Positions 11,525-23,146 of a stretch of 64,000 nucleotides of DNA are shown here, piece by piece; the first letter of the stretch is position 1; each line of letters begins with the position of its first letter. The stretch covers positions 1 through 64,000 of the forward strand of contig CBDDCX010000006.1 in the NCBI GenBank assembly GCA_965226375.1. The letters run 5' to 3'. This DNA is from Longimicrobiales bacterium (GTDB taxonomy: Bacteria > Gemmatimonadota > Gemmatimonadetes > Longimicrobiales > Gaopeijiaceae). Both the position numbers and the translations under genes were made by a program. Under the pieces are notes generated by a model, which saw only the letters and a list, made by a program, of their open reading frames with translations, did no database searches and had not been told where the DNA came from.

Positions 11525-11728
11525 ATGCCAAGCGACGAGAAGAGCGTCCGCATCGAGTCGCTCGACGACTTCGACCGCGAGCTCGCGCGCGACGGGGGCG
11601 AGGCCCTCGAGGTGCCGGCCTCGCTGGCCGAGCAGTACGGCCTCTTCCCCGAGGACGTGGGCACCGAAGACGAGATCCGGGACGCCTCGGAGGATCCGCA
11701 CGACCGGGAGGAGGAGGTAGACCGATGA
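11525..11728 (+). CDS. Small highly acidic hypothetical protein (67 aa)
   Basis: AAGGAG SD upstream; stop overlaps ardC ATG (ATGA); 24 of 67 residues are D/E. Confidence 0.65.
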   Translation: MPSDEKSVRIESLDDFDRELARDGGEALEVPASLAEQYGLFPEDVGTEDEIRDASEDPHDREEEVDR

Positions 11729-12477
11729 AACACGACGAGTATCACCGCCAGTTCGCCGACCGGGTCATCGAGCAGATCCGCCAGGGCACCGCCCCCTGGC
11801 AGAAGCCCTGGGGGCCGGGCGAGCGTGTGCTTCCCGCGAACGTCGACACCGGACGCTCCTACTCGGGAGGCAACAGCCTGCACCTTGCCGCCGTCCAGCA
11901 GGAGCGCGGCTACGCCGACGTCCGCTGGGGCACCTACCGCCAGATCCAGGCCCGGGGCGGCCAAGTCAGAAAAGGCGAGCAGGGCACCCGGATCCTCTCA
12001 TTCCAGGACCACCGGAAGATCGCCGTCAACGACGAGCGCGGACGGCCCGTCAGGGACAACGCAGGCAAGCGCGTTTACCGCCACGAGCGGATGCCCACGC
12101 CCGTCGTCCGGCAGTACACCGTGTTCAACGCCGAGCAGGCCGACGGGCTGCCGGCTCGGCCGACGCCCACGGCCGAGCCGCTCTGGAAGGTGCACCAGCA
12201 GGCCGAACGCGTCCTCGAGGACGGCGGGGTCCCCGTCCGTCACGTGGCGGGGGACCGGGCGTTCTACAACTTGAGCCGCGACGAGATCGTGCTGCCCGAG
12301 CGCGGGCAGTTCCCCTCCGCGAACCACTACTACCAGACGGCGCTCCACGAGCTGGGGCATAGCACCGGCCACCCGGAGCGCATGAACCGCGCAACGCTCA
12401 CCCAAGGGATCGCCGACGGGTTTGGGTCGCCGGCCTATGCGAAGGAGGAGCTGCGCGCGGAGATCAGCGCCATGATG
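11725..12477 (+). pseudogene. ardC: ArdC-family antirestriction protein, 5' part (interrupted)
   Basis: APWQKPW, YSGGN, WGTYRQ, VRKGE, TVFNAEQ, zincin LHELGHSTGH, YAKEELRAE. Confidence 0.85.
12464..12477 (+). repeat. attL core TCAGCGCCATGATG
   Basis: Exact 14-bp direct repeat with 22857-22870. Confidence 0.9.
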
Positions 12478-12622
12478 GACACATAGAATCCAGCAGCGTT
12501 CGTAGTCATCCAGAGTATTCCATAACCTACCGTATTACCAACGCTTTATAAGTATTCCTCACCGATCTTACCGGCTCACAATATCTCTTTACATCCACCT
12601 TCATCCCCTATATTATGTGGGG

Positions 12623-13855
12623 ATGAGTACTGTAATAGACACGGCCGCCGCGCCACGGAAAACCAAGCCCAGGGGCCGCCATCCCTATCAGGCCCTTTCG
12701 GCTGCCTTCATCCGCACAGCCCCGCCGGGGAGGCACGCGGACGGCAACGGGTTGTACCTCTTCGTCCAGCCGAGCGGCACCCGGAGTTGGATCCAACGCC
12801 TCGTCATCCGGGGCCGGAGGCGCGAGCTCGGACTGGGCAGCGTCGTGCTGGTCTCGCTCGCCGAAGCACGTGAGAAGGCGCTGGCCAACCGCAAGCTGGC
12901 CCGCGAGGGCGGCGACCCCCTCGCAGAAAAGCGGCGCTCCCAGGGCGTGCCGAGCTTCGCCGAGGCTGCCGCGACGGTGGTGGAACAGCAGCAGGCCGGT
13001 TGGCGCGATCCGAAGTACCCGAAAATCTGGCTGAACAGCCTGGAACGCTACGCATTCGCGCGCATCGGCAAGATGCCGGTCTCGGAGGTGACAAGCGCTG
13101 ACTTGCTCGAGGTCCTCGGGCCTATCTGGCACGTGAAGGCGCCCACGGCCCGAACCGTCCGCCAGCGCATGCATGGGGTGCTGGAATGGGCCGTGGCGAT
13201 GGAACTCCGGACCGACAACCCCTGCGACCGGATCGGGCGGGTGCTCGGCCCTCAGAACGACGTTGTGCAGCACTTCCGGGCGTTGCCGCATGGCATGGTG
13301 GCATCGGCCATTCAGACGGTACGGGCTACGGATGCGCCCCGGGTCCTGAAGCTGGCCTTCGAGTTCCTGGTGCTGACGGCGGCGCGGTGGAACGAGGTGC
13401 GCGGGGCCGCGTGGGAGGAGATCGATCCGAGAGAGGGTGTGTGGGCGGTTCCCGCCACACGCATGAAGGCCAAGCGCGAACATCGGGTTCCGCTATGCGG
13501 CCGCGCCATCGACATCATCGACGAGGCCCGGACGTTCGGCGACGGCAGTCCGATTGTCTTCACCGTCGGCTACGGGCAGCCGATCATTGAAAAGCATCTG
13601 CGTCGATTGCTCGCAACGCTCGAGATCGCGGCCGTGCCTCACGGGTTCCGGTCGAGCTTCCGGGACTGGGCGGCCGAGGAGACTGACCATCCCCGCGAGG
13701 TCGTCGAGGCGGCGCTGGCACATGTGGTCCGGAACAAGGTCGAGGCGGCCTATCGCCGGTCGGACCTGTTCGAGCGCAGGCACGTCCTGATGGACGATTG
13801 GGCTGCGTATCTCGCGGGCGAGCGTCGGGACCCGGAGGCCCAGCGCGTCGGTTGA
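12623..13855 (+). CDS. P4-like tyrosine integrase (intact)
   Basis: DGNGLYL, TAARWNE, HGFRSSFRDW, ALAH, AAYRRSDLFERR..MDDWA. Confidence 0.92.
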   Translation: MSTVIDTAAAPRKTKPRGRHPYQALSAAFIRTAPPGRHADGNGLYLFVQPSGTRSWIQRLVIRGRRRELGLGSVVLVSLAEAREKALANRKLAREGGDPLAEKRRSQGVPSFAEAAATVVEQQQAGWRDPKYPKIWLNSLERYAFARIGKMPVSEVTSADLLEVLGPIWHVKAPTARTVRQRMHGVLEWAVAMELRTDNPCDRIGRVLGPQNDVVQHFRALPHGMVASAIQTVRATDAPRVLKLAFEFLVLTAARWNEVRGAAWEEIDPREGVWAVPATRMKAKREHRVPLCGRAIDIIDEARTFGDGSPIVFTVGYGQPIIEKHLRRLLATLEIAAVPHGFRSSFRDWAAEETDHPREVVEAALAHVVRNKVEAAYRRSDLFERRHVLMDDWAAYLAGERRDPEAQRVG

Positions 13856-13943
13856 TCCGCCGCGCTCGCGGCGCCGGCGGACGAGTCCGTCAGGCGCTGA
13901 AGAGCGGGGGCGCGAAGGCTGGCTCATGACCCGTTAGCAGTCA

Positions 13944-22500: not shown

Positions 22501-22652
22501 ACTGGACGCTGCGCGAGAATGTCAGAGCCAACCTGCGGCGATTGGTCAAGCGCATCCTGCGCAAGCACGGCTACCCACCCGACAAGCGTGATAAGGCGAC
22601 ACGGACGGTGCTCGAACAAGCGGAAGTGCTATCTGCTGGCTGGGCAGCATAA
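19503..22652 (+). CDS. hsdR: Type I R-M restriction subunit
   Basis: [46 protein letters not shown]; uninterrupted. Confidence 0.95.
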
Positions 22653-22856
22653 CACCGGATCGGCCAGCGCGGATTGGAACATACCGATCTCAGGCCCGGC
22701 CGCGCGGCCTCGGTTGATCACTCGGAACTCGTCCACGGACTTCTCATACGGTCGGATGGATTCCCGTTCAGAAAGCGGGAGTGAATGAGGGAATCACGTC
22801 TGATCAACAAGCCGTAAGTCTTGTATTATCAATTATTTATAAAGATTCCGCAGTCG

Positions 22857-22870
22857 TCAGCGCCATGATG
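22857..22870 (+). repeat. attR core TCAGCGCCATGATG
   Basis: Exact repeat of 12464-12477. Confidence 0.9.
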
Positions 22871-23146
22871 ACCGGCGAGCGCGTGGGGGTCGGCCACGAC
22901 CCGAGCCGGGGGGCCGCCTACGTCGAGGGCTGGGTCGCGGCCCTCGAGGAAGATCCCCGGGAGATCCGCCGAGCCGCGGCCGACGCACAGAAGATCTCCG
23001 ACTTCGTGCTGGCCCGAAGCCGCGAGCGCGCGGCCGAGCGGGAGCCCACTCCGGTGGCCGCCACCCGCGCTCCCGACCCGCAGCACGCCGGAAGGCCGGA
23101 GCTCCCGCTGCCGGTCCCCAAACGGAGCTCCGGCCCCAGCCGCTGA
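22857..23146 (+). pseudogene. ardC: ArdC 3' part
   Basis: SAMMTGER..AAYVEGWVAALEEDPREIRRAAADAQKISDFV continues EELRAEISAMM in frame. Confidence 0.85.

Follow-up and report, generated by a model that had tools for sequence, protein, structure and literature searches.

Integrative mobilizable elements (IMEs) residing in conserved genes of integrative conjugative elements (ICEs) have been described for the Tn5252 superfamily of ICEs, with IMESp2907 (maff2-related gene), a tet(O) fragment (SNF2 helicase) and Tn6104 (traG) as the examples given in the available part of the review (PMC5704250). Here, we describe an insert of 10,393 bp that splits ardC, a putative antirestriction gene of an ICE, in a 64,000 nt stretch of the genome of a Longimicrobiales bacterium (assembly GCA_965226375.1, contig CBDDCX010000006.1, positions 1 to 64,000; hereafter the window, to which all plain coordinates refer). 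As in the Tn5252-type IMEs, insofar as that text covers them, the element encodes its own relaxase and is inserted site-specifically into a conserved ICE gene, which it disrupts; this ICE is probably the one that mobilises it. In contrast to those IMEs, which use serine integrases and occur in Firmicutes, it employs a P4-type tyrosine integrase, carries a ColE1-like mob cassette and defence systems, and is located in ardC, a gene not mentioned in the available part of the same review.

The helper-embedded phage-inducible chromosomal islands (HE-PICIs) are also similar, in that subclades of tyrosine integrases target different sites in helper genes, the satellite is co-oriented, and excision restores the gene (PMC10111431, available text). 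However, the helper considered here is an ICE and not a prophage, neither a primase nor capsid genes nor AlpA could be identified (for the primase, among the scanned open reading frames (ORFs) of the window), and the integrase family has targets beyond the helper; the element therefore lies outside the HE-PICIs, which combine a prophage helper with AlpA and primase. The accessible part of a serine integrase survey (PMC10083194) reports no excess of integration sites in or close to anti-phage defence genes and makes no mention of ArdC, and ardC is likewise not mentioned in the available text of PMC12084326 and PMC8138268. IMEs have been reported to be enriched in defence systems (bioRxiv 10.64898/2026.01.13.699239, available part). 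A literature search judged from titles and abstracts, with most subscription journals and supplements outside its scope, yielded no IME in ardC. RIT elements reportedly have DUF1738 targets, an observation ascribed to Ricker et al. (2013). IMEs inside ICE genes are known from Firmicutes, and the use of ardC as the attachment site (attB) by a P4-type integrase, which this search did not reveal, is apparently new.

The ardC gene is divided into a 5' part (11725..12477, plus strand), encoding the ssDNA-binding domain together with the larger part of the metalloprotease domain, and a 3' part (22871..23146, plus strand), encoding the last metalloprotease helices and the tail. In Pfam scans, the 5' piece matches ArdcN (aa 6-134) and positions 2-88 of the MPTase-PolyVal profile, and the 3' piece matches positions 82-125 of the latter. 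The core repeat TCAGCGCCATGATG is present as an exact 14-bp copy at both joints (attL core, 12464..12477; attR core, 22857..22870; both plus strand), and there is no third copy in the window. The insert between the repeats has a GC content of 0.64, compared with 0.70-0.72 in the flanks. Its deletion in silico yields a single open frame, 342 codons long, that spans 11725 to 23146. Furthermore, the empty site is found by blastn in two additional copies of the host element elsewhere in this genome (C5:318539 and C7:26580), where 9584-12477 and 22857-24381 align to contiguous DNA. A first-pass annotation, made from the sequence of the window, had proposed that ardC is split with exact repeats at both joints and that excision restores the frame; the rejoined codons and the two empty alleles bear this out. 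The empty copies on C5 and C7 each contain a single-base indel elsewhere in the gene, due to decay or assembly error, and many such indels occur in the ICE copies of this assembly.

The gene encodes a member of the ArdC family, as judged by the ArdcN and MPTase domains and by the HExxH and EE ligands, which are represented by HELGH at residues 208-212 and by EELRAE at residues 241-246, both in the 5' part. An intact homologue aligns to ArdC of R388 (6I89/6SNA) with an E value of 3e-42 across residues 7-300. The two proteins have the two-domain layout, HExxH and the two glutamates in common, whereas the ArdC of the window family is about 45 residues longer and its role in antirestriction is putative. 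The insertion break is near residue 238 of the R388 protein, past the metal ligands. The truncated frame stops at 12486, two codons inside the insert, and the truncated product of 253 aa retains the ssDNA-binding domain and all of the HExxH and EE ligands. ArdC of R388 counters HsdRMS restriction, does so independently of its protease activity, and is required in the recipient and not in the donor (PMC7213743, available part).

The integrase of the insert, intB (12617..13855, plus strand; likely start ATG 12626), is of the P4 type, with the domains Arm-DNA-bind_3, Phage_int_M and Phage_integrase, and is transcribed in the same direction as the ICE operon. It keeps the catalytic residues R257, H342-x-x-R345, H369 and Y379. 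Next to attL is an AT-rich left arm (12478..12625, plus strand) with an IHF-like site at 12536-12548 (one mismatch) and a sigma70-like promoter at 12588-12616, each of which alone is near chance level. The right arm (22730..22856, plus strand) contains a motif of the integrase family near 22760 and an IHF match at 22827-22839, the only exact match in the window to the consensus; matches with one mismatch number 10 in the window, compared with 7.9 expected, and are thus at chance level. The left arm is 93-97% identical in five relatives and 73% identical in a sixth (genome G440). Thus, catalytic residues, 14-bp repeats, empty alleles and conserved arms together indicate that the element has an integrase of its own and well-defined att sites.

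Sibling subtypes and secondary sites switch from target to element 16 nt before the conserved arm motif, and we therefore predict a 7-bp crossover overlap at 12465-12471. In another genome, G468, an identical variant core is present at both junctions, which fits the identity of the overlap needed for crossover. The predicted overlap is exact in 31 of 70 distinct empty ardC alleles and differs at one to three positions, mostly synonymous, in the others; the empty alleles with an altered overlap might resist the element. An AlpA or other excisionase was not recognised in the insert of the window, including 18 small or alternative-frame ORFs scanned, and AlpA was found in none of the four complete inserts (genome of the window, G000; G401; G468; G440). 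In the ICEs of G000, G401 and G440, an AlpA gene precedes virB2, and AlpA genes are also present near the right arms of sibling elements.

Recurrence at the same position argues that ardC is a specific target. Searching 201 genomes of the family with the left-arm DNA retrieved six arms other than that of the window itself that match from the core onwards (83-96% identity). Five of these are in ardC in the same register (G420, G401, G468, G440 and G360), and the sixth (G359) is at a look-alike secondary site in another sequence; the full-length integrases of these relatives are 90-97% identical. A pattern for the right junction gave 12 matches in 10 of 314 genomes, namely 10 arm-ardC junctions in eight genomes, two of them with shortened arms, and two chance matches without an arm. 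G353 contributes an additional right junction in ardC. Altogether, a junction in ardC was found in 10 genomes of seven genera, that is, in nine genomes besides that of the window, which answers in the affirmative the check suggested in the first-pass annotation, whether ardC is hit repeatedly by close homologues of the integrase. The pattern for the left junction matches 4 of 401 genomes of the class, all of them in the family of the window.

These insertions do not appear to be the inheritance of one event. The arms of six copies of the window type are 93-97% identical, compared with 78-92% for 200 bp of the occupied ardC flank. In a tree of the ardC 5' region (28 rows, chosen from 75 distinct alleles by a similarity of at least 83% to the window; the scar in G002 and a partial copy in G420 left out), the five occupied parts require five changes, and occupied alleles as a single clade are rejected (p-AU 2e-54). 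Thus, the same site in a conserved ICE gene has been hit repeatedly and independently. Two further genomes contain what look like scars: in G002, a chromosomal locus that G001 has intact is broken in two, with each half fused at the core to one half of the same ardC gene, and G001 has an orphan ardC 3' half that begins at the core. As far as their sequences tell, these scars fit past recombination at the ardC core.

Searches with the integrase protein gave a different yield. No match above 77% identity was found among 61 relatives, and ardC was at the left arm in none of at least 79 metagenome loci and none of at least 79 genome loci among the matches listed, none of which exceeded that identity. 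In a sample of ardC loci from the phylum, 64 of 66 other loci are intact across the site, and the window is the only occupied copy. A plasmid collection yielded one unannotated integrase match at 49%, and the named records of related integrases are from metagenome-assembled genomes of Gemmatimonadota and Acidobacteriota. Two candidates were not counted as insertions in ardC. In G005, G402 and G420, a second integrase (41% identity) meets ardC some 9 nt short of the core; this fusion (L188:480-1713, L401, L396) is tail-first, with the same junction and 96% identity in all three genomes and an other end that is not ardC, and it was therefore treated as probably one inherited fusion. The target of a 57%-identical integrase (L035:2207-2452) seemed ArdC-like and reads like a degenerate zincin motif, with no Pfam match and only 7 of 16 identities.

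Downstream of intB is the mobilization cassette on the minus strand, consisting of a gene for an MbeA-like (MOBP5-type) relaxase (14151..15629; Relaxase PF03432) and a gene for a MobC/NikA-like relaxosome accessory protein (15619..15960; Pfam). Two internal alternative-frame ORFs are located within the relaxase gene, one at the MbeB position (14396-14890), with no family match, and an MbeD-like one (14195-14386), which matches PF04899 above the cut-off. The cassette has the order of mobC followed by the relaxase gene with internal ORFs at the MobB and MobD positions in common with the ColE1 mobC-mobA/BDE cassette (MOBP5; PMC9282650, available part), and MbeA is the best NCBIfam match of the relaxase. 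However, the relaxase remains below the MbeA cut-off (NF047848, E 2e-26; 93 bits versus 500), it has a three-histidine motif instead of HEN, and the cassette is part of an integrative element and is flanked by inverted repeats. Therefore, the assignment to the ColE1 type in the first-pass annotation holds for the gene order and the internal MbeD-like ORF but not for the relaxase; by its profile score and motif, the cassette resembles that of ColE1 and the relaxase is not MbeA proper.

The inverted repeats that bracket the cassette are 115 bp in length and 96% identical. Copy 1 (13944..14058) would be oriT-like by position, and copy 2 (15942..16056), directly upstream of mobC, is a candidate oriT; the end of the repeat resembles a nick region of the ColE1 type, a putative assignment. 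The repeat folds no better than shuffled sequences (z 0.42). Both copies are also present in G440, and related copies adjoin mob genes and integrases at other loci. With relaxase, MobC, MbeD-like ORF and candidate oriT, and with no genes of a type IV secretion system inside the insert in profile scans of its ORFs, the element has the composition of an IME. At locus L315, a 90%-identical mob cassette is in the opposite orientation relative to its integrase, and the cassette may therefore have flipped at some time. At L240:3699-11100 (G002), a 27%-identical integrase is accompanied by a 74%-identical relaxase and a SIR2 gene and abuts the trbJ-position gene of the ICE; this pairing indicates that one mob cassette travels with different integrases.

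The remainder of the insert encodes a type I restriction-modification (R-M) system on the plus strand, consisting of the methyltransferase hsdM (16616..18190; Pfam, PADLOC MTase_I), the specificity subunit hsdS (18193..19506; GC 0.556; Pfam, PADLOC Specificity_I) and the restriction subunit hsdR (19503..22652; TIGR00348 above cut-off, PADLOC REase_I). The catalytic motifs of HsdM and HsdR are intact, and the complete hsdMSR and intact integrase reported in the first-pass annotation are thus present. The complete ardC inserts differ in length (10.4 kb in G000, 16.8 kb in G401, 13.5 kb in G468 and 11.3 kb in G440) and in cargo. That of G401 carries the same type I system (HsdS 97%), whereas the insert at G468:C1 has a type I system with another HsdS (38%), and in G420 a different type I system is located beside the left end. 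A second ardC insert in G468 (C5) carries mainly an Ig/LRR surface protein, and the element of G359 a type ISP/IIG enzyme. In G440, the insert (L371:5152-12248) contains a type I-G CRISPR-Cas system with cas3, cas8g, cas7, cas5/6 and an array of 17 repeats; cas1 and cas2 were not recognised among the ORFs scanned, and the spacers gave no convincing match in the examined loci, in this genome or in phages. McrBC, Mrr, a retron-type reverse transcriptase and SIR2 are carried by elements of the family with other targets, and defence cargo is therefore a trait of the family and not a mark of the ardC subtype.

The host element belongs to a family of ICEs of 17-18 kb that is present in multiple copies in the examined genomes. 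In intact copies, the gene order is repressor, virB2, B4, B9, B10, trbJ-position gene, virB6, an unassigned gene (rr1), traD, virB11, a small ORF, ardC, orf295, orf104, xis and int. The ICE around the insert of G440 is complete over the whole span between virB2 and int, and the ICE of G401 is near-complete. In the window, the ICE is reduced to the region from the 3' part of traD through orf104, and xis-int is absent. The small ORF upstream of ardC (11432..11728, plus strand), which has no Pfam match, is conserved in every ICE copy examined, and downstream of ardC are orf295, with no family match, and orf104 (together 23170..24381, plus strand). The virB11-type ATPase gene (10536..11520, plus strand; T2SSE match 10834-11520) is frameshifted by a single-base indel relative to an intact copy, again through decay or an assembly indel. 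A second P4-type integrase gene, intA (8364..10436, plus strand), 74% identical to intB, is fused in frame to the 3' part of traD (Pfam integrase plus TraG-D_C). The fusion point is near 9585-9599, at the junction relative to the C5 copy, and the fusion appears from the sequence to mark the loss of the 5' transfer genes of the ICE. It is at a short sequence match, with the catalytic tyrosine region kept and the last helix replaced. A more complete transfer region is present at the end of contig C5 of the same genome. Judged by its gene content, the ICE at the locus of the window is a non-transferable remnant, and the element there at present serves chiefly as the source of a chromosomally located type I R-M system. 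The decayed state of the ICE and the 115-bp inverted repeats are absent from the first-pass annotation.

In public contigs of four studies, the integrase is found at about 99% identity, along with empty ardC alleles. One contig from another study covers 12448-12763 across attL with four differences, although fewer than 31 of its letters belong to ardC. Among the joints listed from these contig sets, none was an attP joint of an excised circle. A sequencing run containing the element is labelled as a sponge metagenome, and the host bacterium is probably a sponge-associated member of the Gemmatimonadota.

What is observed, then, is a duplicated core, conserved arms, the same site across ardC alleles and genera, and a variable, mostly defensive cargo. 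The specific, repeated targeting and the complete ICE of G440 carrying such an insert lead us to the reading, which we consider likely, that the insert is an IME with a P4-type integrase and an attB just after the EELRAE codons of ardC, embedded in a probable helper ICE. The circular form would integrate by crossover within the 7-bp overlap, and excision would require an AlpA-type directionality factor supplied in trans by the ICE or by siblings, since the IME has none and both the ICE and sibling elements encode one. The element's own MbeA-like relaxase would nick it for exit through the type IV channel of the ICE, or it may ride inside the ICE. The most likely role of ardC is that of a conserved multi-copy landing site in the helper that is dispensable for the pilus or DNA transfer, and it would be one of several sites, others being in ICEs, transposases and repeated chromosomal motifs, to which this family of integrases has turned. 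The part of the first-pass interpretation that sees a mobilizable element of the satellite type aimed at ardC in a conjugative element is in line with these data, and defence cargo is usual.

Several points weigh against this reading. The role of the ICE as a helper is assumed from co-location only, and essential transfer genes are targets of related integrases too, so that the argument from a dispensable gene loses force. An excised circle was absent from the listed joints, and the ICE stretch of G007 has no AlpA match. In addition, the right-arm pattern is blind to secondary sites because it contains ardC letters, and recombination between copies of the ICE may account for part of the signal against a single clade.

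An alternative compatible with the embedded IME, and possible although rather unlikely, is a regulatory coupling of the kind found in HE-PICIs, in which induction of the ICE would read into intB, and orf295-xis-int would be expressed only after the departure of the IME. The insert is co-oriented with the ICE and, in its gene order, is located between traD-virB11 and orf295-orf104-xis-int; at the ardC, virB4 and post-rr1 sites, the integrase points in the same direction as the genes of the ICE; a simple scan revealed no plus-strand terminator between ardC and intB; and there is a precedent in the HE-PICIs (PMC10111431, available text). However, intB has a promoter-like site of its own.

About as plausible, and in our view unlikely, is that ardC was chosen because ArdC neutralises type I restriction, so that the insert would knock out the anti-defence gene of the helper and add restriction, and excision would reverse both. 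ArdC of R388 does counteract HsdRMS (PMC7213743, available part), type I R-M systems are the cargo in G000, G401, G420 and G468:C1 and CRISPR-Cas in G440, and excision would restore ardC in three of the four complete inserts (342 codons in G000 and G468, 344 in G440). In G401, no normal product would result, because the 3' half of ardC has decayed. However, the truncated product would keep the ssDNA-binding domain and all metal ligands, and in R388, insofar as that source covers it, the protease is dispensable and ArdC acts in recipients, not in donors. Furthermore, most ardC copies per genome stay unoccupied: right arms are joined to 1 of 3 ardC 3' matches in G000, 1 of 7 in G440 and 3 of 14 in G468, and ArdC is therefore not removed from the cell. 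The sister clade of the integrase targets Ig-like codons, elements with other targets also carry defence systems, and one ardC insert carries mainly Ig/LRR cargo. The proposals of the first-pass annotation that the insert disables the anti-defence gene of the helper and acts as a reversible defence/anti-defence switch are thus not supported, in view of the retained domain and ligands, the unoccupied copies, a helper that is dead in the window, an unrestorable ardC in G401 and the lack of attP among the listed joints. The insertion may damage antirestriction, at most a putative selected function. Chance insertion by a promiscuous integrase or mis-assembly between multi-copy repeats, which would agree with the lack of a second ardC case in the at least 79 metagenome and at least 79 genome loci, the 64 of 66 intact ardC loci and the assembly indels, is highly improbable given the 90-97% identical integrases that the arm DNA search placed at the same ardC site, the nine other genomes and the contig of another study that spans attL.

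The embedded IME is part of an integrase family with many other targets. The sister clade (75-77%) targets repeated Ig-like codons, as read from translations, and further targets are the 3' ends of a repeated chromosomal gene family, IS3-type transposases, and sibling relaxases and integrases. The chromosomal gene family is presumably PQQ-dehydrogenase-like. Within the ICEs, related integrases have also hit virB4, virB11 and the position after rr1. At L414:1-7278 (G468), virB11 of the same ICE family is split by an element of about 6.8 kb whose integrase is 60% identical and whose cargo seems to resemble a cytosine methyltransferase, a nuclease and Vsr. At L027, L277 and L278, and at L294, L304 and L192, family subtypes are inserted in the relaxase or integrase gene of sibling elements.

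The right end of another element of the family is located in the window at 30236..30638 (plus strand), with a frameshifted AlpA gene (30236-30386) and a right arm (30514-30638) joined to a partial FtsX-like gene. Two pieces of insertion sequences are found at 6875-8297. One is a fragment of an integrase core (minus strand), and the other is an IS3-type element that the left arm belonging to the outer integrase interrupts at 8297; G005 has the same cut. Left and right ends of sibling elements are shuffled between several loci of G000 (C2:55350, C6:423900, C4:99430, C6:401830, C7:638300 and window 30640), and halves of an IS3-type transposase, a HEAT-repeat gene and an FtsX-like gene are on different contigs of that genome. 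From these sequences, the integrase family appears to drive genome rearrangement.

A variant of the anti-defence idea, which we regard as doubtful, is that the satellite counters anti-defence by splitting ardC of its helper and borrows AlpA of the ICE, so that the gene would be restored only upon ICE induction for transfer. If this were true, ArdC would no longer blunt the restriction or CRISPR system brought by the insert and would be back when it is needed in the next recipient. The locus offers a defined attB in an antirestriction gene, natural occupied and empty alleles and a complete pair of ICE and satellite, and it makes approachable the questions whether satellites choose anti-defence genes for their function and whether the N-terminal domain of ArdC is enough. 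The embedded IME would extend the ICE-embedded IMEs to P4-type integrases, in a family whose targets are numerous, short and variable and which carries defence systems from one probable sponge symbiont to another.

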